From assembly GCA_031548665.1 (NCBI GenBank), contig JAVBQW010000029.1, positions 11,684 through 75,683 of the forward strand: a stretch of DNA of 64,000 nucleotides, given 5' to 3'. The stretch is from Thermoguttaceae bacterium. GTDB taxonomy: Bacteria; Planctomycetota; Planctomycetia; Pirellulales; Thermoguttaceae. A program made the position numbers and the translations under genes. Positions 10,502 through 63,851 of this stretch are shown in pieces (within the stretch, counting starts at the first letter, position 1; each line of letters begins with the position of its first letter). The notes beneath the pieces are model-generated. The model did no database searches and was not told the origin of the DNA. It worked only from the letters and a program-made list of their open reading frames with translations.

Positions 10502-11929
10502 CTAATTTTTCAATCTTTCCAGATATTTCGTCCGGATGCCGTTCAGTTCTTCGACGACTTCCGGATGCTTTTCGGCGAGGTTCGTCGTTTCGCCGGGATC
10601 GTTTTTCAAGTCGATCAGGACCAGCGGCGGCTCGGGAGGTTGTTGCGGAAACCTCGGATTATTCATGTTCCACGGCGTCGGCTTCGACACGTCGATCGGA
10701 TTGGCGAGCAACTTCCAGTCTCCTTTGCGGAGGGCCCATTGTCCGTTGAGCGGTTTGACGTCCCAATAGAGTTCTTCATGCGGCGACGGTCCGTCGTTCT
10801 TCAACGCGTCGGCAAAACTCTTGCCGTCGATCACTTCCTTGAGTTCCTGTTTCGGAAACGCGACGCCGCAGAGCTCCGCCAGGGTCGGCATCCAGTCGCA
10901 GCCGCTGAGTATCTGATTTCTGACGACGTCCTTCGGCAACGACTTCGGCCAGGAAACCACGGAAGGAACCCGGATGCCGCCTTCGTACATGCTGAACTTG
11001 CCGCCGCGATACGGACCGGCCCAACCGCCGCCGTAGCCGGTTCGCTCCTCGAAGGAATGTCCCTGATCCGCCTGGAACACGATGATCGTGTTCTCACGCA
11101 GCCCTTCCTTTTCCAATGCTTCGACGATCCGGCCGATCTGCTTGTCCATGTCGGTCAGGAACGCCGTGTACAGCCGCCGAACGTCGACCGTCGAATTGAA
11201 CTTGCCGGCGTAGAGAACTTCTTGGGGAACGACGTTTTCATACGATTCCATCGTTTCCGTCGTCGGCTGCACCGGATAATGCGGAATGTTGTAGGCAACG
11301 TACGTAAAAAACGGTTTCTCCTTGTTCCGCTTGATGAAGTCGATGCACTCGTCGGTCATCCGCTGAGGAAAATACTGCCCCGGTTCGTAGATTTCCTTGC
11401 CGTTCTTCCAAAGATCGTGTCGGCAGGCGCCTTCCCAGTAGATGTAGTGCGACCAGTTGTCGATGACGCCGCCCATGATCCCATAGTGTTCGTCGAATCC
11501 CTGTGCGGTCGGGATCGTCTCGGGCGAGTATCCGAGATGCCATTTTCCGAACAGACCCGTCCGATAACCGGCATCGTGGAAAAGTTCGGCGATCGTGTAC
11601 TGCTCGGTCGGCATTCCGGGGCGTCCGAACATGCAGGACACGTTGGCGGGAACACCGGCACGGGTCGGCATTTTGCCGGTCATCAGGCCGGCTCGGGAAG
11701 CGGAGCAGACCGGTGCCGGGGCGTACATTTGCGTGAAACGAACGCCGCTTTTCGCCAACCCGTCGATGTTCGGAGACAGAACGTCCTTTGTTCCGTAACA
11801 GCCGAGGTCGACGGCTCCTTGATCGTCGGAGTAGATCAGCACGACGTTCGGTCGCTGCATTTCAGCGGCGAACACCGAAACGGCAACAAGCAAGACGACC
11901 GAAGTCGCCAGAATTCGGACCGTGTTCAT
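10502..11929 (-). CDS. Arylsulfatase (formylglycine-dependent sulfatase family), secreted
   Basis: PNVVLIYSDDQG, the FGly motif CSASRAGLMTGK (a C-x-A-x-R variant), GKWHLG, and an N-terminal signal peptide. Confidence 0.9.
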   Translation of the reverse strand: MNTVRILATSVVLLVAVSVFAAEMQRPNVVLIYSDDQGAVDLGCYGTKDVLSPNIDGLAKSGVRFTQMYAPAPVCSASRAGLMTGKMPTRAGVPANVSCMFGRPGMPTEQYTIAELFHDAGYRTGLFGKWHLGYSPETIPTAQGFDEHYGIMGGVIDNWSHYIYWEGACRHDLWKNGKEIYEPGQYFPQRMTDECIDFIKRNKEKPFFTYVAYNIPHYPVQPTTETMESYENVVPQEVLYAGKFNSTVDVRRLYTAFLTDMDKQIGRIVEALEKEGLRENTIIVFQADQGHSFEERTGYGGGWAGPYRGGKFSMYEGGIRVPSVVSWPKSLPKDVVRNQILSGCDWMPTLAELCGVAFPKQELKEVIDGKSFADALKNDGPSPHEELYWDVKPLNGQWALRKGDWKLLANPIDVSKPTPWNMNNPRFPQQPPEPPLVLIDLKNDPGETTNLAEKHPEVVEELNGIRTKYLERLKN

Positions 11930-12010
11930 AGAAACTTTCAGGGTAAAGGTTTGAAAAAATCTATACTGCGAAACGGCATTCGACTGACATTATTTCGTCG
12001 CAATTTCCGA

Positions 12011-12646
12011 ATGATTTCCCGCAAACGACTCAACCGACCGAAGCTTTTCGTCGATAAACCGTATTGGGATTGTATCGACTTCACCGCCCTCTTTCAATCG
12101 TCGCCAATGGATACGCCGAATCTTGCCGCCGCTTCGATGCTGGTCGGAAAATGTTTGGACGACCACCATCCGGAGCGGAGCGGCGTGTCTCTCATTGCGT
12201 TTCCGGGCGAGGAAAGCGACTCGATTCAGGAAGCCTGGCTGGAATCGTTGAGCGGTGTCCGTGTTCGGCGATCCGATCGAGTGCTGCTGGCGCAGCCGTT
12301 GCATTGGCCGGTTCCGATCATTTTCGGCGTTCTCGGTGCTTCCGGGGCCGATTCTTCCGCCGATTCTTCTGTTTCAGGGTTTGAGGTTCGCGACAACAAC
12401 GTCATCGTGTTGAAGGGCGACTCGCCGATCCAAGTCGTCGCCCACGACGGCCGTAAGCTCGTCGAGATCGGCAAGAGCTTGAACGGTCCGACGATCCGGA
12501 TTTGCCAGCGCGACGCGGCGATCCAACTTCCCGGCAAGCTGAGCATTGCGGCGGCAGAGCTTCTGCTTCGTTCCCACGGCGGCGACGTCCGAATCGAAGC
12601 CGATCAGGAAGTCGTCGTTCAGGGCGACCTGATTCGTTTGAATTAG
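12011..12646 (+). CDS. Hypothetical protein (211 aa), hidden in the tail of the long shadow ORF 10565..12646
   Basis: ATG at 12011, in frame with the 3' part of the track ORF and beyond the sulfatase gene. GC3-rich codons. Convergent with the SDR gene. The sequence looks protein-like (…PVPIIFGVLG…VRIEADQEVVVQGDLIRLN). The start codon is uncertain. Confidence 0.5.
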   Translation: MISRKRLNRPKLFVDKPYWDCIDFTALFQSSPMDTPNLAAASMLVGKCLDDHHPERSGVSLIAFPGEESDSIQEAWLESLSGVRVRRSDRVLLAQPLHWPVPIIFGVLGASGADSSADSSVSGFEVRDNNVIVLKGDSPIQVVAHDGRKLVEIGKSLNGPTIRICQRDAAIQLPGKLSIAAAELLLRSHGGDVRIEADQEVVVQGDLIRLN

Positions 12647-13514: not shown

Positions 13515-15089
13515 ATGAAAAATTTTCGTTTAATTTTCTTCGCCCTATTATCTCTTTTTGCGATATTTCTTGAAGCGGCGCCCCCCGACGCCTTGCGGCA
13601 GGCGGCGAACCAGGCGACGGTCGAGTATCGTAACGACTTGGAAAAGCTTGCCGACTGGGCCGCCAAACAGGGACTCCGTGCGGAGACGTTGCAGACACGG
13701 TCCGCCGTGTTGCCATCGGAGCCCGACAAAATTTTTCTGCCGAGTTTTCCGCTCGCCGTGGGAACCTTGGACCTTCCGAAGGGACTGCCGAGCAACCTGC
13801 CGAGAAAATACGCGGTCCTTTTTCTCTCCGGCGAAACGGCTTCGGAAAAGTCCGGTGACGCGTTGGAAAAAGAATCGGGCGTCGCGTTGGCGCCGCAAGA
13901 CGTTTGGCGGATTCAATTTCGTACGATCCGGACGAACTACGCCAAGCGGCTCCAGTTGCTGGCCAAGACGGCGGTCAAGGACCAGCGGGGTTCCCTGGCG
14001 GTCCAGTTGGCGGTCGCCGGACTCCACGCGAACCCCGATCACGAAGGTTTTCGAACCGTCTTCGGATTCGTCAAATACAAGGGCGAATGGCGAACGCCGT
14101 GGGAAGTCGAGCGACTGAAAAAGGATTTCGTCGATCATGAACGCTTCGGCTGGATCCCGAAGAAAGCGGTCGACCGTTACGAAAAAGGAGAACGGTATTG
14201 CAACGGCGAATGGATTCCCGAAACGGAAGACATCCGAAGGCATTCGGCGATTGAAAACGGTTGGAAAATCGAGTCGGAACACTACGATCTGACGACGAAT
14301 CACGGCATCGAGGAAGGCGTTCGGATGCTCCGGCAGAACGAGAATCTCTACCGGGCTTGGAAGCTGCTGTTTTTCCGTTACATGGCGACCGACGCGCAGC
14401 TTGCGACGCTTTTCAACGGCAAAATGGTCCCCGCGCCGCTTCGGCGGCACAAAATCGTTCTCTATCGGGACCGTGAAGATTTTCTCCGGGCCGAAAAGGC
14501 AAGGGGCGAAAAGGAACCCGAACGGTTCGCCGGAATGTACCGATATACCAACAAGGACGGTTGCTGTTATTTTTACGTCAGCGGTTCCCTGTCGATCATG
14601 TATCACGAGTCGACGCATCAACTGTTTCAAGAAACGAAAAACATCGCCGGGAACCAACTGTTGAGTGGCGTGGCGAAAAACGAACAGCCGTTGAACACCT
14701 GGCTCCGGGAGGGCGTCGCGATGCTCATGGAAACGCTCCAGGTCGACGAGGCCGGATATTACGTGATCGGCAACAAGAACAGCGGCCGGATCCGGTCGGC
14801 GAAACGGAATTTCCGTAACGATCGTTTTTTTCTGCCGTTTTCGGATCTCGCGGACATCGACGGTCGGGATTGGAAGTCTCACGAAAAAATGGGTTCGCTC
14901 TACGATCAATCGGCGGCGATGTTTTATTTTCTCATGTTTTACGAAAACGGTCGGTTGCGCGATCCGCTTGTCGTGTTGCTTCGGCTGCATTACGAGCAAA
15001 AGGACACGCGGCAGTCGATCGTCCAGTTGACCGGGATGAGTACCGACGAACTCGACGCCGCGTTCAAGGATTTTTTGAAAGAAAACTAA
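13515..15089 (+). CDS. Secreted HExxH protein (putative zinc metallopeptidase-like, DUF1570-like)
   Basis: Signal peptide MKNFRLIFFALLSLFAIFLEA and an HESTH motif in SIMYHESTHQLF. The family assignment is from memory. Confidence 0.7.
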   Translation: MKNFRLIFFALLSLFAIFLEAAPPDALRQAANQATVEYRNDLEKLADWAAKQGLRAETLQTRSAVLPSEPDKIFLPSFPLAVGTLDLPKGLPSNLPRKYAVLFLSGETASEKSGDALEKESGVALAPQDVWRIQFRTIRTNYAKRLQLLAKTAVKDQRGSLAVQLAVAGLHANPDHEGFRTVFGFVKYKGEWRTPWEVERLKKDFVDHERFGWIPKKAVDRYEKGERYCNGEWIPETEDIRRHSAIENGWKIESEHYDLTTNHGIEEGVRMLRQNENLYRAWKLLFFRYMATDAQLATLFNGKMVPAPLRRHKIVLYRDREDFLRAEKARGEKEPERFAGMYRYTNKDGCCYFYVSGSLSIMYHESTHQLFQETKNIAGNQLLSGVAKNEQPLNTWLREGVAMLMETLQVDEAGYYVIGNKNSGRIRSAKRNFRNDRFFLPFSDLADIDGRDWKSHEKMGSLYDQSAAMFYFLMFYENGRLRDPLVVLLRLHYEQKDTRQSIVQLTGMSTDELDAAFKDFLKEN

Positions 15090-20355: not shown

Positions 20356-20477
20356 GTCATCCCCGCGAAGGCGGGGACCTAGAGAACAGATTTCAATAGG
20401 CTTCTTGCACACGTTATTGACGGATGCAAACGGTCGACAACATCTTCCGTCTAGGTCCCCGCCTGCGCGGGGATGAC
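20356..20477. mobile_element. PAL-A MITE-like element, copy 2 (122 bp)
   Basis: GTCATCCCCGCGAAGGCGGGGACCTAGA...TCTAGGTCCCCGCCTGCGCGGGGATGAC. The internal part is the reverse complement of the internal part of copy 4. Confidence 0.9.
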
Positions 20478-23964: not shown

Positions 23965-24066
23965 GTCATCCCCGCGAAGGCGGGGACCTAGACGGAAGGC
24001 GTTATTAACCGTTTGCACACTCTTAACTTGCGGCGATGCAAAGGGTTGGAAAATTTACTCTCTAGG
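23965..24066. mobile_element. PAL-A MITE-like element, copy 3, truncated in its right terminal repeat
   Basis: The full left TIR and internal region are present. The right TIR stops after TCTAGG, where the 154-bp element begins. Confidence 0.8.
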
Positions 24067-30391: not shown

Positions 30392-32413
30392 ATGATCGAT
30401 ACCGTGAAAACGCTGACTATCAACGGAATGTCGGTTCCGATTCAAGGAGAACGTAATCTTTTAGAGGTCGCCCGGAAAGCGGGGATCGATATTCCGACGT
30501 TTTGCTATCATTCGGAATTGAGTATATACGGGGCCTGTCGACTCTGTCTCGTCGACGTCAAGGGCTTGGGAATCGTCGCCGCCTGTTCGACGACGCCGAC
30601 CGAAGGCATGGAAGTCAAGACGCATACGGAAGAAATCCGGCAAATGCGTAAAGTCGCCTTGGAATTGATCCTGGCGAATCACGACCAGAATTGTACGACT
30701 TGTCCCAAAAACACGAATTGCCGGCTCCAAGAGCTGACGCGGCAGCTCGGCGTCACCGAAGTCCGCTTCAAGAGGACTTTCGTCCAACGACCGATCGACC
30801 GTTCCAGTTTGTCGTTGGTCCGCGATCCGAATAAATGTATTCTCTGCGGCGACTGCGTTCGGGCTTGCTCGGAAATCCAAGGTGTCGGAGCGATCGGTTT
30901 CGCCGGTCGGGGAGCCAAGGCAAGCGTCGTGCCGCCGTTCAACAAGAATCTGGCGGACGTCGAATGCGTCAACTGCGGACTCTGCGCCTCGGTCTGTCCG
31001 GTCGGAGCCCTGACGCCGCGAGACGACGTCGACGACGTTTGGAAAGCGATCAACGATCCGAAGAAAAAGGTGATCGTTCAGGTTGCCCCGGCGGTTCGTG
31101 TCGCGATCGGCGAAGCGTTCGGCGGAGTGCCCGGAAGCGTCGAAATGGGCCGGATCGTCGCCGCCCTGAAAGCGATCGGATTCGATCAGGTTTACGATAC
31201 GAGCTTCGCCGCCGATATGACGGTCCTTGAGGAAGCGAATGAATTCATCGAACGGAAGACGAAAAACGAAAAACTGCCGCAGTTTACGTCCTGCTGCCCG
31301 GCATGGATCAAATACGCTGAACAGTTCCTGCCCGACTTTTTGCCCAACTTGTCGAGCTGCAGCTCGCCGCAACAGATGTTCGGCGCGACGGCAAAGAGAA
31401 TCCTGCCGGAACAGCTCGGCGTCGCCAAGGAAGATCTGATCGTCGTCTCCGTCATGCCGTGCACGGCGAAGAAATTCGAAGCGAAACAGTCAAAATTCAT
31501 CAAGGACGGAATCGCCGACGTCGACGTCGTGCTGACGACGCAGGAATTGGTCCGGATGATCGAAGAAGCCGGTCTCCGTTTCAACGATTTGCTGCCGCAG
31601 TCGCTGGACAATCCGTTCGGCTTCAAAACCGGCGCCGGCGTGATCTTCGGAGCGTCCGGCGGCGTGACTGAAGCGGTACTCCGCTACGCCGTGGAAAAAA
31701 TCAAGGGCGTCAAGCTCGACAACTTCGAGTTCAACGAAGTTCGCGGCGACGAGAATATTCGGGAAGCGGAATTCAACCTCAACGGTTTAATCGTCCGGCT
31801 TTGCGTCGTCCACGGTCTGGGCAACGCCCGGAAAGTCGCCGACATGATCAAAAAAGGCGAAAAGCAATACGATCTTGTCGAAGTCATGGCGTGTCCCGCC
31901 GGTTGCGTCGGCGGCGCCGGCCAGCCGGTCTCCAACGACTGGGAAGTCCGCCGCAGCCGCGCCGAAGGTTTGTACAAGGCCGACAAAATGCTGCAGCTCC
32001 ATAAATCGCAGGACAACCATCTGCTGACGGAGTGCTACGAAAAGCATTTCGAAGGCGGAGTCGGCGGACACACGGCGCACGAACTGCTCCACACGACGTA
32101 CCATAATCGCCGCCGGATTTACGGCCTCACGATGCCGGTGCTCGACGAAACGACCGGCGAACCCGAAGTCCGCGTTTCGGTCTGCGTCGGAACGAGTTGC
32201 TTCGTTCGCGGCAGCCAGGCGCTTTTGAAGAAGATCGTCGATCACATTCAGGACCAGGCGCTCGGACATCTCGTCCAAGTCGAAGCGACGTTCTGCACCG
32301 AAAACTGTGATCGCGGTCCGACCGTGACGGTCGGCAACAACGTGATTTTCAAGGCAACACCGGAAGTCGTCGTCGCGGCGATCAAGAACCAACTCGACGC
32401 CGCCAAAGTATAA
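30392..32413 (+). CDS. hydA: [FeFe]-hydrogenase catalytic subunit, HydA-like, with N-terminal 2Fe-2S/4Fe-4S ferredoxin modules and a C-terminal thioredoxin-like 2Fe-2S domain
   Basis: H-cluster motifs TSCCPAW, MPCTAKKFE and EVMACPAGCVGGAGQP. N-terminal CYHSELSIYGACRLCLV and two CxxCxxCxxxCP clusters. C-terminal VCVGTSCFVRGS…FCTENCDRGP. Confidence 0.85.
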   Translation: MIDTVKTLTINGMSVPIQGERNLLEVARKAGIDIPTFCYHSELSIYGACRLCLVDVKGLGIVAACSTTPTEGMEVKTHTEEIRQMRKVALELILANHDQNCTTCPKNTNCRLQELTRQLGVTEVRFKRTFVQRPIDRSSLSLVRDPNKCILCGDCVRACSEIQGVGAIGFAGRGAKASVVPPFNKNLADVECVNCGLCASVCPVGALTPRDDVDDVWKAINDPKKKVIVQVAPAVRVAIGEAFGGVPGSVEMGRIVAALKAIGFDQVYDTSFAADMTVLEEANEFIERKTKNEKLPQFTSCCPAWIKYAEQFLPDFLPNLSSCSSPQQMFGATAKRILPEQLGVAKEDLIVVSVMPCTAKKFEAKQSKFIKDGIADVDVVLTTQELVRMIEEAGLRFNDLLPQSLDNPFGFKTGAGVIFGASGGVTEAVLRYAVEKIKGVKLDNFEFNEVRGDENIREAEFNLNGLIVRLCVVHGLGNARKVADMIKKGEKQYDLVEVMACPAGCVGGAGQPVSNDWEVRRSRAEGLYKADKMLQLHKSQDNHLLTECYEKHFEGGVGGHTAHELLHTTYHNRRRIYGLTMPVLDETTGEPEVRVSVCVGTSCFVRGSQALLKKIVDHIQDQALGHLVQVEATFCTENCDRGPTVTVGNNVIFKATPEVVVAAIKNQLDAAKV

Positions 32414-40138: not shown

Positions 40139-42715
40139 ATGAACCGAATTTTCTTCGCTCTGCTCCTGATCGTTTCCGTTGCTCTTGAGGCCTTCGCCCA
40201 GGACGATCATTACGCGATAACGCCGACCGAAAAGGAAGCTCTCCTGACGAAAGCGCAATCCGCTCTGACATGGTTCCGAACGATGGACCGCGATTCGCGT
40301 ACCAACACTCCGATGGCGACCTACCGCAAGCAAATTTCGCCGTTGGAGTTGATGCAGGCCGCAGCCCTGATGAAGGAGGCCAAGCAAGACGACGTCTCCC
40401 GGATGATGCGCGAAATGTTCCCGTATATGCAGCCGACGAACGAGGAATGCTTCGCCGTGCAAGAGCGGCTCGGCGACGAAATGCTCGATTCCTTCAAGGA
40501 TTTGAGGGAGGTCCAGCAAGGGGAGATCACGACGGATTCCGTGACGATGGTCCGGGAACGTTCCGCATTGTTTCTCAAGGAGTCGTTGAATCCGGCCGAG
40601 CGAATGATTTTGTACAACGAGCCGACGACGCCGTTGGAAATCATGCGAGTGGTTTCCAACCTTCTTTCTCCGGGTCGGCCCGGTTTGGTTCGGTTTTATC
40701 TGCGACGATTCCTGAAAAACGATCTTCAACCGGAGGAAGCGGCGGCGATCATCGACAACGTCGGTTCGTCGACGTTGATGCAGCTTTCCCGGAAGAGGGA
40801 TTTCGCGCCGCAGGGGGAGGAGGTCGTGTCGAAAATCTTTGCCGAAGCTCGGAAATATTGGCGGGACCCCGAAACGCTCAAGGAGCCGCTTGATCGTTTG
40901 GGGAGCGGCGAAAAGGCCGAGGTTGTCGAATCCGTCCGGGCGCTCTGGAAAGGCGCCGACGTTTCCGTCGACTTGCTGTTGGATAAGTTGGAGCGGAGCG
41001 ACGACGAAAAAGAGGTCGCCGCGATCCAGGATTTTTTGCCGTCGTTCGGCAGCGGAATCGCCGAAGCGTTGAGCGAAACGTTCCGGAGCGGCAACGCCAA
41101 GTTGATCAGTCGAGCGGCAAAGGCGTTGGACAAAATTCTGCCGAATGAGGAAGGATTCCTGTTTTACGCCCCGATGTTCGACGAGCAGTTGCCCGCCGAA
41201 CTGCGCAACGAGATTTCTTCTTATGTCGAAAGGCGACAGGATTCGAAGCCGACCGCCGAAAAAGCGGCCGTTGTCCTGTACAAACGGGCAAAGGATTATT
41301 TTGAAAAGAATCGTGGCGTAAAAACCGACGCCGACGGATACGTCAAGTTCTGGAACTGGGACGCCAACGAGTTCAAGGTGAAGCATATTCGGATGTTGGT
41401 CCCGGCGGCGTATCGACTTTTCGCCTGGCGCTATGCGTCGCTTGCCCACCAAATTCTGCCGGACGACGACGGAATCAAGCGGCTCTATCTGTTGACCTTG
41501 TTCGATCGGACGGCGAACCTGAACGGTTTGGACACGCCGCTTGGCGACGATCCTTCGAAGCTCCGGGTTGCCGCCGCCGAGTTGAGCGTCGCCCAGCTCG
41601 AAGCAATGTTGAAGGAAGGAATCGAGTCGGAGCATTTCGCCGCCGCCCAAATCGCGGCGACGTTGCTCGGCGAACGCAACGTCGACGAATTGCTGTACGA
41701 TTCGAACTCCGACAAACCGCGAATTCTTGTCCAAGCTCTTTCCGCTCCGGACCGCCGTGTTCGCTACGCCGCTCTTGAGGCCGTCGTCAAATTGAAGCCG
41801 CAGCGTCCGTTTCCCGGCTCCAGTCTGGTCGTCGACAATTTGACGTGGTTCGCCCGGTCCTCGGGCAAACGGGTGGTCGTCGTCGCTCATCCAAGGCAGT
41901 CGATTGCGGCGAAAGTCGGCGGACATTTTTCTTCTTGCGGATACAAAGCCGAACTTGCCGAAACGAGCGCCCGCGCGCTGCGGGCCGCCGCGAGCTCGCC
42001 GGACGTCGAGCTCCTGGTGATCGATTTGCTCTGTTCGAAGCCGCCGGTCCCCGAAATGTTGCAGGCGATGCGGCAGGACAACAGGACCTACGATATTCCG
42101 GTTGCCGTCTTGACCGACGACGACCGGGCCTTGGCGACCGCGACCGATTTTCGTTCGTTGCCGTCGATGCAGAAGATTGAAAAGCAGCGGGGCGACAATC
42201 CCTTTGCTTTGTCGCTCTCGGCCGTGTATCCGCCGGTCGGCGACGACGAAACCGCGAAGAAGGTCAACCTCGATTTGTTCGAACGCTGCGGTGTGGAACC
42301 GGTTCCCGCGACGTTACGGCTTCAACAGGCTCGGCAATCGCTGGTCTGGCTGAAGGAGATCATCGAATCGCCGTCGAAGATTTATCAGGTCGAGGGGCTC
42401 GATTCCGTGGTCCGTTCGGCGGTTTACAGCGAGACGAAAATCTGGCAGGGCCTCGACTTGGCGGCGTCGATCAAATCCGGCGCGATGCAGGACTTGCTTT
42501 ACGATGTGATCTCGCAGGAGATGAATCCGATCGAGTTACGAAAAGAGGCCGCCGAAAAGTTCAAGGAGAGCGTCGACAAGTTCGGCGTCCTGCTTCGCGG
42601 CAAACAGGTCCAACGGCTTTACGACCGGTACAACGCCAGCGAAAAGGAGCCGAAGGAATCGCAGGAAATCCTCAGCGGCGTGATCGACCTCGTCGAAGAA
42701 AAAACGTTGAAGTAA
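40139..42715 (+). CDS. Secreted hypothetical protein (858 aa) with a HEAT-like repeat and a receiver-like (CheY-fold-like) segment
   Basis: Signal peptide MNRIFFALLLIVSVALEAFAQ. ALSAPDRRVRYAALEAVVKL looks HEAT-like. KRVVVVAHPRQS…VELLVIDLL…IPVAVLTDDD resembles a receiver fold. Coding-like codon usage throughout. Confidence 0.7.
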   Translation: MNRIFFALLLIVSVALEAFAQDDHYAITPTEKEALLTKAQSALTWFRTMDRDSRTNTPMATYRKQISPLELMQAAALMKEAKQDDVSRMMREMFPYMQPTNEECFAVQERLGDEMLDSFKDLREVQQGEITTDSVTMVRERSALFLKESLNPAERMILYNEPTTPLEIMRVVSNLLSPGRPGLVRFYLRRFLKNDLQPEEAAAIIDNVGSSTLMQLSRKRDFAPQGEEVVSKIFAEARKYWRDPETLKEPLDRLGSGEKAEVVESVRALWKGADVSVDLLLDKLERSDDEKEVAAIQDFLPSFGSGIAEALSETFRSGNAKLISRAAKALDKILPNEEGFLFYAPMFDEQLPAELRNEISSYVERRQDSKPTAEKAAVVLYKRAKDYFEKNRGVKTDADGYVKFWNWDANEFKVKHIRMLVPAAYRLFAWRYASLAHQILPDDDGIKRLYLLTLFDRTANLNGLDTPLGDDPSKLRVAAAELSVAQLEAMLKEGIESEHFAAAQIAATLLGERNVDELLYDSNSDKPRILVQALSAPDRRVRYAALEAVVKLKPQRPFPGSSLVVDNLTWFARSSGKRVVVVAHPRQSIAAKVGGHFSSCGYKAELAETSARALRAAASSPDVELLVIDLLCSKPPVPEMLQAMRQDNRTYDIPVAVLTDDDRALATATDFRSLPSMQKIEKQRGDNPFALSLSAVYPPVGDDETAKKVNLDLFERCGVEPVPATLRLQQARQSLVWLKEIIESPSKIYQVEGLDSVVRSAVYSETKIWQGLDLAASIKSGAMQDLLYDVISQEMNPIELRKEAAEKFKESVDKFGVLLRGKQVQRLYDRYNASEKEPKESQEILSGVIDLVEEKTLK

Positions 42716-50162: not shown

Positions 50163-51245
50163 ATGAAAACAACACCATTCATTTTATTTCCGTTCGTCGT
50201 TTTGCTGAACATTTCACTTCGGGCGCAAGATACACCGAAAGTTCTGTATCCGACGGACAACAACGTCCAATGGATCACGAATCCGACAACGGAAAAAATT
50301 GCGCAACCGAAAATGAAATGGGCCGACACCGCGAAGAAATTCGACAAGGACGGCAAGCCGATTCCGTACTCGAAAGATCCCACGGTCGTTAAATTCGGCG
50401 GACGGTATCTGATGTACTTTTCGCTGCCGCCCAGCGATAAAGTCAAGACGCCGTGCGGTTGGATCATCGGAATCGCCGAGAGTTCCGATCTCGTCAACTG
50501 GAAAACCGTTCGGGAAATTGCGCCGATGCAGGATTGCGACCAAAAAGGACTTTGCGCTCCCTGCGCCCGGGTTTGGGACGGCAAGGTGCATCTCTTTTAC
50601 CAAACGTACGGAAACGGAAAGAACGACGCGATCTGTTACGCTTCGTCGGAAAACGGGCTCGATTTCACGCCGCATCCGGAAAACCCGGTGTTCCGACCGC
50701 ACGGCGATTGGACCTGCGGCCGCGCGATCGACGCCGACGTGTTCCGCTTCAAGGACAAACTCTTTCTGTACGTTGCGACCCGCGATCCCGACATGAAAAT
50801 CCAAAAGCTCGCCGTCGCAACCGCCGATCCGAACTCCGATTACGGCCCGAAATGTTGGACGCAAGCCGCCGACCGCTCCATTCTCGAACCGGAATTGCCG
50901 TGGGAGACGAAATGCATCGAAGCGGCGACCGTCTGTGAGCGCAACGGAAAACTCGTCATGTTCTACGCCGGAGGATACAACAACGATCCGCAGCAAATCG
51001 GCGTTGCGCAAAGTTTCGACGGCGTCAACTGGACCCGGCTCTGGTCGGTTCCCTTCCTTCCGAACGGTCCCGCCGGACAATGGAATTCCTCGGAGTCCGG
51101 ACATCCCGGCGTGTTCGTCGACGACGACGGGAAAACGTACCTTTTTTACCAGGGAAATCCCGACAAGGGAAAAACCTGGTTCCTCTCCGTCGTCGAAATC
51201 GGCTGGAACGGCGACGAGCCGTTCGTTGTTACGGAAAATCAATGA
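50163..51245 (+). CDS. Secreted five-bladed beta-propeller glycosidase (GH43-superfamily-like)
   Basis: DPTVVKFGGRYLMYFS, WIIGIAESSDLVNW, ARVWDGKVHLFYQ, LFLYVATRD and KLVMFYAGG form repeated blade-like motifs. The exact family is not resolved. Confidence 0.6.
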   Translation: MKTTPFILFPFVVLLNISLRAQDTPKVLYPTDNNVQWITNPTTEKIAQPKMKWADTAKKFDKDGKPIPYSKDPTVVKFGGRYLMYFSLPPSDKVKTPCGWIIGIAESSDLVNWKTVREIAPMQDCDQKGLCAPCARVWDGKVHLFYQTYGNGKNDAICYASSENGLDFTPHPENPVFRPHGDWTCGRAIDADVFRFKDKLFLYVATRDPDMKIQKLAVATADPNSDYGPKCWTQAADRSILEPELPWETKCIEAATVCERNGKLVMFYAGGYNNDPQQIGVAQSFDGVNWTRLWSVPFLPNGPAGQWNSSESGHPGVFVDDDGKTYLFYQGNPDKGKTWFLSVVEIGWNGDEPFVVTENQ

Positions 51246-52462
51246 AGCACCGGAAAAAGAACAGGCAGGTTCTCCTCCTCATCGAATCGTCCCGGGCGTA
51301 CGGCCGGGGAATCATCGAGGGCGTTTCCCGTTACGTTCAGGAGCGCGATCACTGGACGGTTTTTTACGAGGAACAGGGGATCCTCTCGACGTTGCCGCCG
51401 TGGCTGAGGGAATGGAAGGGCGACGGCATTATTTGTCGCACGGGAATCTCGACGCTCGGACTCCATCTCCGGAAGCTGGGTCTGCCGCTGGTTGAACTTC
51501 TCGGCGACGGCCGGCGTTTCGTCAGCGAGGTCCAGTCGGACGCCGTCGTCGCCGGCCGGATGGCGGCGGACCATTTCATCGAGCGGGGATTGAGACATTT
51601 CGCTTATTACAATTACGGAAATTCCTGGTGGGGCGAAGCACGGGGAAACGCTTTCGCCGGGGCATTGAGCCAAAAGGGACTCGACTGCCATACGCTGCTC
51701 TCCCGGCACGGCGAAAAGGCGGAGGCGTTCCCCGAATGGAAGCCGCTTTACGAACCGAAATTGCTGCGTTGGCTCTCGACGCTTCCCAAACCGGTCGGTA
51801 TTTGGTGCGCCGCCGATACGATTGCACAACGAGTTCACGCGGCCGTTCTCAAGCTCGGATTCTCGATTCCCGACGACGTTGCGCTGCTCGGCATCGACAA
51901 CGACGAACATCTCTGCAACGTCCTGACGCCGACGCTTTCGAGCATCGAGCCGAACTCCATCGTCGTCGGTTACCAGGCGGCGAAACGGTTGGACGCCAAG
52001 ATGGATCGGAAAACGTCCAGAAATCGAGAAAAGCCGCCGGACGAAACGCCGATCAGGATTGCGCCGCAGGGTGTCGTCCAGCGGCAGTCGAGCGACGTGA
52101 TCGCGGCCGCCGACCCGCTGCTCGTCGCCATCGCCCGGTACATTCGGAGCAACGCCCTGAAAGGATTGCTCGTTGCCGACGTCGCGCGGGAATTCGATAT
52201 TTCGAAACGGACTCTCGAACGGCGTTACAGAAACCATTTCGGACGAACCGTCGACCGGGAAATTACGCTGCTCCGCATGGAACACGCGAAATTCCTGTTG
52301 CGGGAAACTCTCCTGCCGGTCGCGGAGATCGGCGAACAGACCGGATTCGATCGCAACTATTTCATCAAGGCGTTCCACCGGATCGTCGGCGTCTCGCCCA
52401 GCGTTTATCGGAACGAACACCGTGTCGGTACGCCGTGGAAAGATCGACGCGAGGATCATTAG
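51242..52462 (+). CDS. XylR-like regulator (periplasmic-binding-protein-like sensor domain plus AraC-type HTH)
   Basis: Start at MKHRKKNRQVLLLIESSRAYGRGIIEGVSRY, overlapping the upstream stop as ATGA. C-terminal ISKRTLERRYRNHFGRT…IGEQTGFDRNYFIKAFHRIVGVSPSVYR. Confidence 0.85.
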   Translation: MKHRKKNRQVLLLIESSRAYGRGIIEGVSRYVQERDHWTVFYEEQGILSTLPPWLREWKGDGIICRTGISTLGLHLRKLGLPLVELLGDGRRFVSEVQSDAVVAGRMAADHFIERGLRHFAYYNYGNSWWGEARGNAFAGALSQKGLDCHTLLSRHGEKAEAFPEWKPLYEPKLLRWLSTLPKPVGIWCAADTIAQRVHAAVLKLGFSIPDDVALLGIDNDEHLCNVLTPTLSSIEPNSIVVGYQAAKRLDAKMDRKTSRNREKPPDETPIRIAPQGVVQRQSSDVIAAADPLLVAIARYIRSNALKGLLVADVAREFDISKRTLERRYRNHFGRTVDREITLLRMEHAKFLLRETLLPVAEIGEQTGFDRNYFIKAFHRIVGVSPSVYRNEHRVGTPWKDRREDH

Positions 52463-52514
52463 ATTTTCGCTCGACAACAACATCGCCGAGGTTTTCTACT
52501 GTCCGGAACACCAA

Positions 52515-52572
52515 CCATCCGGGGGCTACGGCGGGGTATTGTTTCTCTGGCCGCCTACACCCCCGGCTCTTG
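52515..52572. repeat. PAL-D' hairpin between convergent genes
   Basis: CCATCCGGGGGCTACGGCGG-loop-CCGCCTACACCCCCGGCTCTTG. Confidence 0.8.
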
Positions 52573-52586
52573 AGTTGAACCTTTTT

Positions 52587-54623
52587 TTAATAGAGGCCCG
52601 GATAGGACGTGTTGCCCATGTACAGGTTGTAGAAGCCGCCGTAGTTCGCGGTTTCCTGCGGACCGACCTGGGCGCCGAAGTATCCGTACGGATAAGCATT
52701 GCGAGACGGCATCCGCATCGCGGTGTCCGTCGGCATGTACGGCGTGCACCAAGCCTGCATCATCTGCTGGAACATGTCGTTCTGGCCGCCGCCCATCCGT
52801 TGTTCACGACGCTCGGCCCGACGCGCCGCAAGCCGGGCGAACAATCCCTGGCGACGCGGTTGCTGGTCCTTCATCAGGGCCATCAACATGAGAACGTCGG
52901 TCATCGACATTCCACCCTGATTGAAACCACCTCCGCCGTTCATACCGCACATCGTGTACGGATTTCCCCCCATCATGGGATTCATTCCCATCATCGGGTT
53001 CATGCCCATCATGTTCGGATTCGCGTACATCATCATCATCGGGTTCATTCCCATCGCCATGGGATTACCCATCGACGGATTCAGCGAGGCGGTCGGATCG
53101 GTCGGATTCATTCCCCCCATCATGTTCGCGTTGGCGTCGGCGGCGTACATTTGGGCGTACGGAGCGTAAGCACCGAACATTTGCATTTGCTGCAACTGTT
53201 GCATCTGCTGCTGCATCTGTTGTTGCTGTGCGGCCTGCGGATTGATCGGCAGCGGAGCCTGAAGGTCGTTGCCCGCAAAGGAATCCTTGGCTTCGCCCTC
53301 CGCAGTCGGCTGCGGCGCCCGGCCCATCAATTGGTCGTTCTGCTGCTGGAGCAATTGAATCTGCTGCTGGAGCTGTTGAATTTGCTGGGCGTAAGCCGCT
53401 TGGTAGGGATTCATCGCAGCACCCATCATCGGATTCATCGCGGGGTTCATGCCGCCCATCATCGGATTCATCACGGGATTCATGCCGCCCATCATCGGAT
53501 TCATCATCGGCATCGGAGCCGCTTGATAACCGACGACGACCATTCCGTAAGGCGTCATCGCGGTGATCGGTCGCGGCTGCTGCATGGCCTGCATCGCTCG
53601 CATCTGCTGCATCATCATCATCGCGGCGGGATCCACGGCCGGAGCCATGGAAGGCCCGGGAATGTTCATGTCGCCGCCCATCGGCCCCATCGGACCGGGC
53701 GGCAGGACCATCCATTGCGGACCGGACTGACGGCAACGGAGCAATCCGCAACCGTTATGCGACGGAGGCATGGAAACCATCGTGAATCCGTTCGGCAGCG
53801 TGAAGCACTGCGGACCGCCGGGCATTCCGGGACCGCAGCCGCTCATTCGGCTGTTCATCGGCATTCCGGACATTCCGTAACCGTCCCCGCCCATCATCGG
53901 ATTGAATCCGACCTGCGTCGTGCAACCGTGAAGACCCGTCTGGTTGATGTATCCGTTGTTACCCATCGGAACCGACGCGGCCTTGAACAAGGGCGACGAG
54001 AACGACCACGCGGTCGGCGTTTTTTCCGACGAGCAGAAAATTCCTGCCTGCGTGATTTCGTTCGGCGTGTTCGCGGTCGGCGTCGCCGGAACGACTTCCT
54101 CGGTGTTCGAGGCGAGTTGAATCGGCGTTTTTTCCTCCGCGGCTTTCAAGGCTTTCGGTTCCTGCAGCGTCAATTCGTCGGAGACGGTCGCTTCCGGAGC
54201 GACCTCCGCTTTCGCCGGATTGGCTTCGGGCAGCGGCTGCGGCAACATCTTCGGCGAGACCGGATAAACCGATTGGTTCACGGTTTTCATCGCCGTCGGA
54301 TACGGAAGATTGTAGGAGGGAAACGCCGTATACGTCGCGACGAACGGCGAAACGATTCCGTTGTCCGGCGACGTGTTCAAACTCCGCGACGCCAATTGAT
54401 TTTGGCTCTTGGCACTCGGCAGGTATTGGATCGATTCCGGCAGCACGACATGGGGAACCATTTCGTACTGGACGTTCGGAACACCTCTGGATATTCCGGC
54501 GGGCGTTCCGGACGCTTTGTGTAGACAATCTCCTCCGAAGGCGGGCAAGCCGAACCCCAATCCGAGGACGAGAATTCCAGCGGTCAACTGTTTCCGGACC
54601 GACTTGTTGCGTTTCTTTTTCAT
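52587..54623 (-). CDS. Secreted or membrane-anchored methionine-rich low-complexity protein (678 aa)
   Basis: ATG with GAGGG 6 nt upstream. N-terminus MKKKRNKSVRKQLTAGILVLGLGFGLPAFG. GC3-rich codons on this strand, unlike the His-rich mirror ORF on the plus strand. MNPMMGG-type repeats and a Q-rich coiled-coil-like stretch. Confidence 0.75.
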   Translation of the reverse strand: MKKKRNKSVRKQLTAGILVLGLGFGLPAFGGDCLHKASGTPAGISRGVPNVQYEMVPHVVLPESIQYLPSAKSQNQLASRSLNTSPDNGIVSPFVATYTAFPSYNLPYPTAMKTVNQSVYPVSPKMLPQPLPEANPAKAEVAPEATVSDELTLQEPKALKAAEEKTPIQLASNTEEVVPATPTANTPNEITQAGIFCSSEKTPTAWSFSSPLFKAASVPMGNNGYINQTGLHGCTTQVGFNPMMGGDGYGMSGMPMNSRMSGCGPGMPGGPQCFTLPNGFTMVSMPPSHNGCGLLRCRQSGPQWMVLPPGPMGPMGGDMNIPGPSMAPAVDPAAMMMMQQMRAMQAMQQPRPITAMTPYGMVVVGYQAAPMPMMNPMMGGMNPVMNPMMGGMNPAMNPMMGAAMNPYQAAYAQQIQQLQQQIQLLQQQNDQLMGRAPQPTAEGEAKDSFAGNDLQAPLPINPQAAQQQQMQQQMQQLQQMQMFGAYAPYAQMYAADANANMMGGMNPTDPTASLNPSMGNPMAMGMNPMMMMYANPNMMGMNPMMGMNPMMGGNPYTMCGMNGGGGFNQGGMSMTDVLMLMALMKDQQPRRQGLFARLAARRAERREQRMGGGQNDMFQQMMQAWCTPYMPTDTAMRMPSRNAYPYGYFGAQVGPQETANYGGFYNLYMGNTSYPGLY

Positions 54624-54862
54624 CTGATCCCTCAGCGTATGTTTTGACGGACTCCATTCCAGGCGCGCAGACGCCGCCGGTTCTTTTCGTATGATCGAAC
54701 CAATCGTTAGGAACCGATTGCGAAACGTACCGGTTTCGACGTATTTTCTCGTCGAGTCGGTCGGGTGATGCCGGTTTGTTCGGTCGATCCGAAGAATCCG
54801 GTCGTTCCGTAGATACCGAACGTTCCGGTTCGGTAAGATTTAAGGGCGATGCAGATAGGAAC

Positions 54863-54983
54863 GTCATCCCCGCGAAGGCGGGGACCCAGACGGAAAACGT
54901 GATTGATCGTTTGCATCCGTCAATAACGTGTGCAAGAACCTATTGGAATCTGCTCTCTAGGTCCCCGCCTGCGCGGGGATGAC
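54863..54983. mobile_element. PAL-A MITE-like element, copy 4 (121 bp)
   Basis: GTCATCCCCGCGAAGGCGGGGACCCAGA…TCTAGGTCCCCGCCTGCGCGGGGATGAC. Confidence 0.9.
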
Positions 54984-55011
54984 GGAATGAGGAGCGAATC
55001 GTTTCGACGGA

Positions 55012-62616: not shown

Positions 62617-62778
62617 TTACTCCGAAAGAAACAGGCGTTCCGGCGGGTTGCCTTCGTAATATTCGTTCAGGTCGAACAGCTTGCTGGAAAGCATGGCGAA
62701 GTTCACGATGTCTTGAAGGTCTTTCCCGACAGGATAAATCGTGTAGTCGTCTTGCGGCGAAACAATTCGTTCGATCAT
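62617..62778 (-). CDS. Candidate small protein, 53 aa (MIERIVSPQDDYTIYPVGKDLQDIVNFAMLSSKLFDLNEYYEGNPPERLFLSE)
   Basis: Its ATG overlaps the TGA of the upstream hydrolase gene (ATGA). Balanced, non-repetitive composition. Below the track cutoff. Confidence 0.45.
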   Translation of the reverse strand: MIERIVSPQDDYTIYPVGKDLQDIVNFAMLSSKLFDLNEYYEGNPPERLFLSE

Positions 62779-63782
62779 CGTTCAGATTTTTTTTCCGCGA
62801 AGCAGCCGTGTTCGAGAAATCGGAACACGGCTTCGTAAACGTCTTCGGTGAGGAGCATCTCGCCGTGTCCGACGTGAAATTGGATCCAATCGTCGGCTCC
62901 CAGCAGCCGGGTTCCTTCCGTGCTGACGATTCCGTCGTCGTCGCCGGCAATCAAGAGGCTGAATCCCCGATCGTCGCCGCGTCCCCCGGCGATGATTCCG
63001 AACGAACAGCAGGGAATTCCCAACGAAAGCTCCGTTCGGGGCCAATGAATGCCGAGTTCGTCGCCGCTTTCGCCGCCGACCCGTCGATTTAACGGATTGT
63101 TGCCGATCAACTTGACCGCGATTTCGGCGCCGTGGTTCGGCGGACCCAGCATCACAAATCGACCGATCCGACGATCCGGAACGAAGGCTCCACGAGCTTC
63201 CATCTTGTCGAGCGGCGTCTGCCAGTTTTCGTCCAACGGACCGCTCAAATACCGCCGAATGACGATGCTGCCGAGACTGTGTCCGATAAAGTCGATGCGA
63301 TTCACGGAATCCGGCAGGCCGCGAACAACCTGATCCAGCATCCGGGCGTGATCCAAAATCGACTGCTGCGTCGAAGGATACGACATGTTGAACACGGCGT
63401 CGTACTCCGGACGGTTGCGGAGACTCTCCGCGACGTGCCGCATCGTAAAACAGCCGGAGCCGAATCCGTGCAATACGATCGCGACCCGGCCCCGGAGCGG
63501 AACAATGTTTTCCTCCGACTCGATCTCCGTCAAACGACGACGGCATTCCTCCAGAGTCCCTGCCGTCCGTTGGATGGAGCGGGAGTCGAGCAGACGATAA
63601 GTTTCCGTCTTGACGTTTTGCTGGAGATGGTGCTCCCGGGAAAAATAGACGTCGCCCCAAAAAAATAAGCCGCCGGTCGTCTTGAACGGAACAATCTCCT
63701 CAATCTTCGGCGGGAAATTCTCCTGGCCGAAAACCGTGACGGCGAACAGTAAAAAAATCGGAAGAAAATGCTGCCCCTTCAT
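62775..63782 (-). CDS. Secreted alpha/beta hydrolase (lipase/esterase-like, GHSLG nucleophile elbow)
   Basis: Start at MKGQHFLPIFLLFAVTVFGQ. VAIVLHGFGSG and IDFIGHSLGSIVIRRYL. Confidence 0.8.
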   Translation of the reverse strand: MKGQHFLPIFLLFAVTVFGQENFPPKIEEIVPFKTTGGLFFWGDVYFSREHHLQQNVKTETYRLLDSRSIQRTAGTLEECRRRLTEIESEENIVPLRGRVAIVLHGFGSGCFTMRHVAESLRNRPEYDAVFNMSYPSTQQSILDHARMLDQVVRGLPDSVNRIDFIGHSLGSIVIRRYLSGPLDENWQTPLDKMEARGAFVPDRRIGRFVMLGPPNHGAEIAVKLIGNNPLNRRVGGESGDELGIHWPRTELSLGIPCCSFGIIAGGRGDDRGFSLLIAGDDDGIVSTEGTRLLGADDWIQFHVGHGEMLLTEDVYEAVFRFLEHGCFAEKKSER

Positions 63783-63851
63783 GACGTCCTCGCTCGTTTG
63801 AGGAGGAAAGTTTACCAAGGAAAGGGAGAAAAATCAAGATCGAACGACGGA

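Follow-up and report, generated by a model that had tools for sequence, protein, structure and literature searches.

An unannotated, probably exported protein family of Thermoguttaceae-type planctomycetes with a labile methionine-rich core

Exported bacterial proteins in which 12-18% of the residues are methionine are rare, and the characterised examples found, SilE, the N-terminal domain (NTD) of the outer-membrane protein PcoB and MrpX, serve in the defence against metals or oxidants. SilE is reported to be disordered in its apo form (PMC5008109) and the PcoB NTD to be a poorly conserved sequence which tolerates swaps and truncations (PMC12509749); for both, which are encoded in the sil and pco operons, His besides Met matters for metal handling (PMC5008109, PMC12509749). 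MrpX, found in Proteobacteria, is a periplasmic hypochlorite scavenger, co-regulated with a periplasmic Met-sulfoxide reductase (PMC4436054). In eukaryotic Met-rich prion-like domains, Met acts as a hydrophobic 'sticker', and its oxidation can tune cohesion (PMC8394241, PMC9312190). The protein described here shows the same extreme composition in another setting: it is large, is conserved at both ends and lacks a defence context. It is encoded on the minus strand at positions 52587..54623 of a 64,000-nucleotide stretch (the window) of contig JAVBQW010000029.1 from a Thermoguttaceae bacterium.

The gene product, of 678 aa (stop codon at 52587-52589), is rich in Met, Pro, Gly and Gln. It is the local member of a small, narrow and unannotated family confined to Thermoguttaceae-type planctomycetes, the hosts being anaerobic, saccharolytic gut and digester lineages, which became cultivable only recently (PMC11929135). 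The family is new and clade-specific, its members are probably exported, and its Met-rich low-complexity core is unusual and evolutionarily labile.

Searches of a large protein collection returned 69 homologues, all labelled 'hypothetical', the best with an E-value of 1e-251 at 62% identity; all those bearing an organism name belong to metagenome-assembled genomes (MAGs) of Planctomycetaceae or Thermoguttaceae, many from termite gut. A pattern scan over one genome per GTDB species detected 35 loci, again all in Thermoguttaceae/'Planctomycetaceae' MAGs, where the gene is single-copy per MAG; the one exception is a gene split over two contigs. The hidden Markov model (HMM) of the C-terminal module, run exhaustively against 1.84 billion representative proteins, gave 49 matches, one of them a spurious repeat protein. 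In all 48 real matches the module lies at the extreme C-terminus, and it was found in this family only. Members range in length between 440 and 830 aa. A metagenome scan for strain-level relatives yielded three loci only, at 52-82% identity, with no near-identical strain.

An earlier note on this stretch, made from its letters, had not recognised the family, and database comparison bears this out. The 678-aa protein has no match in Pfam or NCBIfam at E <= 10, and an exact-sequence look-up found none on record. Pfam comparison of 70 aligned family members at E <= 1 gave scattered one-off noise only (TFIIA, DARPP-32), the family profile matched PDB sequences at noise level (E = 0.24 and 0.98), and a Foldseek comparison of the AlphaFold2 (AF2) model against the PDB reached E = 1.3 at best, with no meaningful match.

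The minus-strand open reading frame (ORF) was aligned codon by codon with three orthologous genes. The differences at codon positions 1/2/3 number 113/80/257, 141/110/250 and 187/141/289; since third-position changes dominate, the frame is a genuine gene under purifying selection. A Shine-Dalgarno-like box, GAGGGA, is located 6 nt before its ATG.

Met accounts for 82 residues of the protein (12.1%), next to 11.2% Pro, 10.6% Gly and 9.0% Gln. Long ORFs of the window have a median of 1.4% Met and the second-highest reaches 4.1%; against a background of 2.5%, the binomial P of the enrichment is ~1e-39. The last 430 residues contain 75 Met (17.4%) against 7 in the first 248, with 15 and 18 in the 50-residue windows 351-400 and 501-550, and M, P, G, N and Q together make up 60% of residues 249-678. 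Over residues 405-482, Gln amounts to 36% and Q+N to 41%, while P, S, T and A compose 41% of residues 32-240. His occurs four times in the whole protein and once in the 255 residues of the Met-rich regions; residues 249-570 include seven Asp and two Glu. The composition is that of Met-rich prion-like low-complexity domains, namely Q/N- and Met-rich and predicted-disordered over at least ~60 residues.

At the DNA level, the unit CCCATCATCGGGTTCAT is present in 7 copies (<=3 mismatches), every one within the ORF, where 0.16 were expected. Tandem Repeats Finder (TRF) detected an in-frame tandem repeat at 53422..53506, with a 33-nt unit (CCCATCATCGGATTCATCACGGGATTCATGCCG on the + strand; x2.6 copies, 96% identity), and 18/21-nt periodicities at 52964-53066. 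The earlier note's description of the sequence holds throughout. Its P/S/T/A-rich N-terminal region, the near-absence of His and Asp from the repeats and the cryptic 18-21-nt tandem repeat are all found; its hand count of ~77 Met in the last ~430 residues compares with 75 here. The instability of repeat length, which it judged probable, is visible over evolutionary time, as the indels that separate the closest orthologues fall in the Met tracts, where the DNA is tandemly repeated.

The AF2 model, built on a 70-sequence alignment, has a mean predicted local distance difference test (pLDDT) value of 51, with 414/677 residues below 50. Its confident parts are limited to beta strands in 223-366, a helix at 405-431 and helices in 573-624, and values below 50 extend across most of residues 367-569. 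Every complete member shares a two-ended plan: a signal peptide followed by Pro/aromatic motifs, a long, predicted-disordered low-complexity middle, and a C-terminal module with a Tyr/Gly/Pro tail. The N- and C-terminal motif blocks co-occur without exception in the family. In the window protein the defining set is complete, consisting of the signal peptide, VPHVVLPE[TS]IxY (55-66), ATYTAFPSY (95-103) and AYP[YW]GYFG...GG[YF] (642-662).

Residues 1-31 (54531..54623, minus strand, as for all gene segments below) form a predicted Sec-type signal peptide, composed of the n-region MKKKRNKSVRKQ and the h-region LTAGILVLGLGFGLPAF, then GG|D. The n-region is basic (+6), and the hydropathy maximum, at 13-31, is the sole transmembrane-like segment of the protein. 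The same layout of basic n-region and hydrophobic core was observed in 66 of the 73 family members scored, with AxA-type sites in several, which makes the export proposed in the earlier note probable. A lipoprotein was rejected on inspection, as no canonical lipobox precedes Cys33, and so was a twin-arginine signal, the n-region being devoid of an RR motif.

The linear motifs which follow, in residues 50-123 (54255..54476), are rich in Pro and aromatic residues (YEMVPHVVLPESIQY, SPFVATYTAFPSYNLP, MKTVNQSVYPVSP). Two of them have the family consensus ATYTAFPSYxLP and VxQSVYPV, and the columns V55, P56, H57, V58, V59, L60, P61, I64, Y66, A95, Y97, P101, S102, Y103, P106, Q116, Y119 and P120 are nearly invariant. 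Their distance from the N-terminus is fixed in the family, ~20-50 residues after the signal peptide; pLDDT is below 55 in this region and autonomous folding is not predicted. An acidic/Pro/Ala/Thr linker, residues 124-185 (54069..54254), aligns poorly, is variable in length and has a pLDDT of ~45-64.

Residues 186-366 (53526..54068) correspond to a small, Cys-containing predicted beta module with Met/Gly/Pro loops, in which GIFC, AWSFSSPLFKAASVPMG, LPNGF, CGLLRCR and ITAMTPYGMVVVGY match the family motifs GIFC, AWSFSSPxFK, LPNG, CGLLRCR and AMTPYGxxVVGY. Seven AF2 strands, at pLDDT 70-88, are located at 223-228, 234-239, 271-274, 280-284, 302-306, 350-356 and 359-366; a Foldseek search with the model found no PDB fold match for the module. 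It is kept in most family members, which carry it together with a Gln-rich heptad coiled coil, and is missing from the most distant clade.

The first Met tract, (MNPMMGGMNPx)n, spans residues 367-404 (53412..53525) and holds the 33-nt repeat. It is followed by the Gln-rich segment YAQQIQQLQQQIQLLQQQNDQL, residues 405-431 (53331..53411), an AF2 helix with pLDDT ~71. With Y, I, L, I, L, N and L in the a/d positions, the hydrophobic residues follow a 4-3-4-3 spacing, with Asn at 'a'; this is the reason for predicting a canonical short coiled coil, and the heptad-like stretch of the earlier note is confirmed by it and by the helix. By analogy with GCN4, the Asn at 'a' would favour a dimer. Q420 and Q425 are nearly invariant in the family. 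A predicted-disordered linker, residues 432-500 (53124..53330; pLDDT < 50), contains a conserved PLPINPQ and a Q/M-rich stretch (QQQQMQQQMQQLQQMQM), and leads to the second Met tract, NMMGGMNP...GMNPMMMMYANPNMMGMNPMMGMNPMMGGNPY, residues 501-569 (52917..53123), where the DNA is 18/21-nt periodic and which is an indel hotspot with respect to the closest orthologues.

The family-defining C-terminal module, residues 570-678 (52590..52916; ~105 aa), is the best-conserved part, at 60-70% identity versus 30-45% elsewhere. It comprises three short AF2 helices, 573-585 (hydrophobic), 593-609 and 616-624, the third containing MFQQMMQAW, with an Arg-rich helix RRQGLFARLAARRAERRE among them, and then the tail RMPSRNAYPYGYFGAQVGPQETANYGGFYNLYMGNTSYPGLY, which may be written RMPSRNAYPYGYFGAQ...TANYGGFYNLYMGNTSYPGLY. 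The YPYGYFG motif is always 31-38 aa from the C-terminus.

With this architecture unchanged, the Met fraction varies between 2.9 and 17.9% across orthologues. A neighbour-joining tree computed from 311 conserved columns shows a patchy distribution, in which clades rich in Met (9% or more) are intermingled with clades poor in it (6% or less), so that the Met-rich state must have changed several times. Compared with Met-poor members, Met-rich ones gain 7.5 percentage points of Met and 2.1 of Gly, and lose 2.1 of Tyr, 1.3 of Leu and 1.2 of Ile; Asn and Gln also decrease. Among the five closest sequences, retention at aligned positions of residues 240-570 is 73% for Met, 71% for Gly, 76% for Gln, 83% for Pro and 88% for Tyr. 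Met is substituted mainly by Leu, Ala, Gly, Val and Ile, and indels take in 25% of Met positions, a larger share than for any other residue. Additional MNPxMNPMMGG units set the window protein apart from its nearest relatives; its first Met tract carries extra units compared with P0001-P0004. M-x1-2-M-x1-2-M motifs number 15 in it and 0-1 in 25 orthologues.

These comparisons show the Met tracts to be rapidly evolving spacers, generated by in-frame tandem duplication and not family-defining. Given the variable content, the patchy tree, the Leu-type exchanges and the indels in the tracts, Met behaves as an interchangeable flexible hydrophobic residue in Tyr/Leu/Ile positions, not as a conserved ligand. 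Base composition was evaluated as the main driver of Met-richness and rejected, as the correlation with the GC content of the locus is only weak (rho 0.35); with the F/Y/N/K/I content of the low-complexity parts it is strong (rho -0.70). NP[M/Y/F] was likewise rejected as a universal family motif, since it is common in several clades and missing in others (P0050, P0055).

The reading preferred here, with somewhat less than even confidence and with most of the uncertainty in its functional half, is that the protein acts as a self-associating scaffold or tether of the envelope or periplasm, with a cohesive disordered middle. After export by Sec, the protein would reside in the envelope or periplasm and oligomerise through the coiled coil at 405-431. 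Both ends would serve as docking sites, for partners or for each other, a role considered because they are conserved yet not autonomously folded. In the Met/Pro/Gly/Gln/Asn middle, which would be a flexible 'sticker-and-spacer' linker or gel of weak cohesion, Met may be the sticker, as Tyr and Leu may be in other lineages; oxidation of Met would affect this cohesion. Cu(I)/Ag(I) binding and oxidant scavenging would then be side properties of Met-rich lineages rather than the function selected in the whole family.

Several points weigh against this reading. The scaffold or tether function was inferred from the architecture alone, and low pLDDT is no proof of disorder. The N-terminal segment may be either a cleaved signal peptide or a membrane anchor. 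The synteny of the examined loci points to no docking partner: the neighbours are entirely different in the seven homologous loci for which genes were called, located on five distinct contigs and with the two closest relatives among them, and clustering of 175 neighbour ORFs from 38 loci revealed no conserved partner. The 15 three-Met motifs have the spacing of Ctr1 'Mets motif' peptides, which reportedly bind Cu(I)/Ag(I) at micromolar level. Met-poor members are still 3-6% Met, above the 1.4% window median for long ORFs, Met-richness emerged or was kept in several clades, and MNP[MY]M-type repeats recur in the most distant clade (P0056, P0090). From the Met content of the Met-poor members and these distant repeats it follows that some persistent preference for Met exists in the family, and some selection for Met chemistry is possible.

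Among the alternatives, the one which fares best, although unlikely, overlaps with the scaffold or tether and differs from it mainly in location and material state. The protein would be a secreted or surface matrix, adhesive or amyloid-like structural protein of a holdfast, biofilm or cell-wall layer, outside the cell rather than in the periplasm, and its Tyr/Gly-rich tail and Q/N-rich segments would nucleate cross-beta or cross-linked assemblies. The prion-like composition, rich in Q/N/G/Y/P, the signal peptide, the conserved Cys residues, and an invariant tail AYPYGYFG...NYGGYYNLY resembling aromatic-Gly low-complexity segments are all compatible with it, and a single-copy, stand-alone gene is common among structural proteins. 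However, no linked secretion-system or sorting-signal genes accompany the gene, imperfect repeats of constant length, as in amyloids, are missing, and 11% proline disfavours extended cross-beta.

A periplasmic sponge or buffer for Cu(I)/Ag(I), close to the suggestion of the earlier note, is a little less probable again. In an anaerobe, whose periplasmic copper is mainly Cu(I), thioether-only MxxM/MxM clusters would trap soft metal ions in that compartment by a chemistry analogous to that of SilE/PcoE, the PcoB N-terminal region, the Met-rich insert of CueO and the Ctr1 Mets motifs. The 15 three-Met motifs and the 17% Met of the C-terminal two thirds, in a protein with a signal peptide and a host with an [FeFe]-hydrogenase, speak for it, as does the metal handling of Met-rich disordered periplasmic regions elsewhere, in SilE and the PcoB NTD (PMC5008109, PMC12509749). 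Both of these need His along with Met (PMC5008109, PMC12509749), whereas the tracts have one His in 255 residues. The Met-richness and the three-Met motifs are not conserved among orthologues, and the strongly conserved parts are the Met-independent motifs at both ends. Neither the flanks of the gene in the window nor the homologous loci examined contain a copper/silver-resistance gene (cop, cus, pco, sil), a multicopper oxidase, a CusF/CopC-type protein or a heavy-metal (P1B) ATPase. The proposal of a Cu(I)/Ag(I)-binding device is thus not sustained for the family; metal binding by the Met tracts is possible as a lineage-specific side property, through thioether chemistry in vitro.

Improbable is the idea that the family is the bacterial, Sec-exported equivalent of the Met-rich prion-like domains of eukaryotes, forming a cohesive, redox-tunable condensate or gel in the periplasm or envelope. 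Met/Tyr 'stickers' and the coiled coil would hold the gel and the conserved end motifs would anchor it. The gel might determine the spacing of the unusually elaborate planctomycete envelope or serve there as a selective phase. If true, bacteria would have their first described example of a Met-based, phase-forming protein outside the cytoplasm.

More doubtful still is a sacrificial oxidant sink: at the oxic-anoxic gut wall, oxidants such as H2O2 or HOCl would be captured by the exported Met tracts, which a periplasmic methionine sulfoxide reductase would then regenerate, on the model of MrpX/YedY in Azospira. It could draw on the very high content of accessible Met in a probably periplasmic, predicted-disordered protein, on the host being an oxygen-sensitive fermenter, and on the MrpX precedent (PMC4436054). 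Against this, none of the loci examined has MsrP/YedY, MsrA/B or SigF/NrsF-type genes next to the family gene, a large protein with conserved non-Met modules is needless for a simple sink, and Met-poor orthologues retain the same architecture. The probability remaining after these readings is reserved for functions not thought of here.

The plus strand carries a mirror ORF, 52173-54524 (+), of 783 aa with 11% His and 18% Arg, which covers almost the whole gene region and runs into the end of the convergent XylR/AraC-type gene 51080-52462. Its His-richness follows from CAT (His) being the reverse complement of ATG (Met), and it is an antisense shadow of the Met-rich gene. The longest antisense stop-free runs in five orthologous genes measure 383, 195, 640, 199 and 293 aa, an interruption from which the minus-strand ORF emerges as the gene. 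That a chance ORF in repetitive DNA was being read, or that this plus-strand His/Arg-rich ORF is the expressed one, an eventuality raised in the earlier note, is effectively refuted: the DNA is indeed repetitive and the mirror ORF exists over nearly the entire region, but it is not conserved in orthologues, while the third-position bias and the motifs of the 69 homologues fall in the minus-strand frame, as the earlier note had it.

In the window, the gene stands alone between an EF-G-like gene on the same strand, 388 bp upstream, and the convergent XylR/AraC-type regulator; GH43, GH2, an FGGY kinase and a P-type ATPase with Cation_ATPase_N/C domains, not of the heavy-metal type, are also nearby. 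The upstream intergenic region (54624..55011, minus strand; 388 bp), comparable to the 290-470 bp gaps of homologous genes, includes the GAGGGA box; no sigma-70-type promoter matched upstream of the gene, and a promoter/terminator scan gave nothing above shuffles. The region also hosts one copy (~54864-54979) of an element of ~115-130 bp, similar to repetitive extragenic palindromes or miniature inverted-repeat transposable elements (REP/MITE-like), with inverted 24-nt ends GTCATCCCCGCGAAGGCGGGGACC ... GGTCCCCGCCTGCGCGGGGATGAC, each end a GC hairpin. Two more full copies (~428-556, ~20357-20473) and a half copy (~23966-23990) are found in the window, all intergenic. An Rfam scan of the window found no matches.

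Recurrent neighbours at homologous loci, a DUF1559-type paralogous family (5 loci) and an RsmD-like methyltransferase (4 loci), were judged to reflect chance or local synteny. Genes for type III pantothenate kinase and ApbE flavin-transferase lie near the family gene in two distant branches, L001 (6697-7527, 10315-11229) and L004 (2200-3141, 14038-15162), and do not occur close to the window gene or its closest relatives. The window has the look of an anaerobic, saccharolytic planctomycete, with 56% GC, GH2, GH43, GH99 and GH106 genes, a DUF1559 protein and an [FeFe]-hydrogenase. The large subunit of this hydrogenase, at 30392-32413 (+), is fused to NuoG-like, ferredoxin and thioredoxin-like [2Fe-2S] domains and indicates a fermentative, anaerobic lifestyle of the host. 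Four more long ORFs (347-858 aa), 40139-42715 (+), 10565-12646 (+), 13515-15089 (+) and 62775-63818 (-), had no Pfam match at E <= 1e-5, and are either further unannotated proteins or chance ORFs.

On the practical side, the repeats presumably break the assembly of the family gene in metagenomes, and many database entries of the family are fragments. L024 and L025 are the N- and C-terminal halves of the gene on different contigs of one MAG (JBOFGF01), and many entries (P0070-P0080, P0088, P0093-P0096) are C-terminal fragments of 57-390 aa, called from internal Met codons. Over-extended starts also occur: in P0002 (L042:8001-10139) the database start lies ~88 residues too early and the conserved MKTNQNKS... 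signal peptide starts internally, and P0026 has a comparable N-terminal extension of ~48 residues.

The family flags a conserved, single-copy, unannotated protein, predicted to belong to the envelope, of gut/digester Thermoguttaceae. The coexistence of Met-rich and Met-poor orthologues is a natural experiment on the role of Met as hydrophobic sticker, soft-metal ligand or redox buffer. The family has no obvious bearing on a long-standing question.

When set against described systems, the protein should not be filed under the SilE/PcoE, MrpX, prion-like, TonB/TolA, CueO or Ctr1 families. It was not assigned to the copper systems because a recognisable domain, the His+Met ligand set and the operon context are all absent. 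With SilE/PcoE and the PcoB N-terminal region it shares exported, disordered, Met-containing low-complexity sequence, disorder and export being here predicted, while His+Met binding motifs were not found. SilE has a size of ~140 aa, whereas the window protein reaches 678 aa, with tracts essentially devoid of His, Met-independent terminal modules and no metal-resistance context. The MxM/MxxM thioether spacing of the 15 three-Met motifs recalls the Ctr1 Mets motifs and the CueO Met-rich insert; those sit on a transporter or multicopper-oxidase scaffold, which the window protein lacks, and the motifs are missing in many orthologues. As for CusF and CopC/PcoC, no CusF_Ag/CopC-type match was found among Pfam, NCBIfam, PDB sequences or folds, nor any cus/cop/pco efflux, oxidase or P1B ATPase neighbour in the examined loci.

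The likeness to MrpX of Azospira suillum is that of a soluble exported protein dense in oxidisable Met (PMC4436054). MrpX is accompanied by YedY/MsrP and SigF/NrsF; the window protein has no linked partner, neither YedY/MsrP nor a sigma/anti-sigma pair occurring in its flanks or in homologous loci, no sequence similarity, and no Met-richness conserved throughout its orthologues, where the range is 2.9-17.9%. TonB and TolA offer a parallel in layout, with an N-terminal hydrophobic anchor or signal, a long, Pro-rich variable spacer and a conserved C-terminal module of ~100 aa. The window protein differs by an additional conserved N-terminal motif block and by its predicted C-terminal helices and aromatic tail; no TonB_C or TolA Pfam match was obtained with it or with 70 members, and no ExbBD/TolQR neighbours were present in the examined loci.

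By composition, the closest known class is that of the eukaryotic Met-rich prion-like domains, such as yeast Pbp1/ataxin-2 and the C-terminal domain of TDP-43, with which the protein has in common a disorder rich in Met and in Gln/Asn/Gly/Pro, and short helical elements of self-association. Those domains are cytoplasmic or nuclear, whereas the window protein is bacterial and, as predicted, Sec-exported; the resemblance is compositional only.

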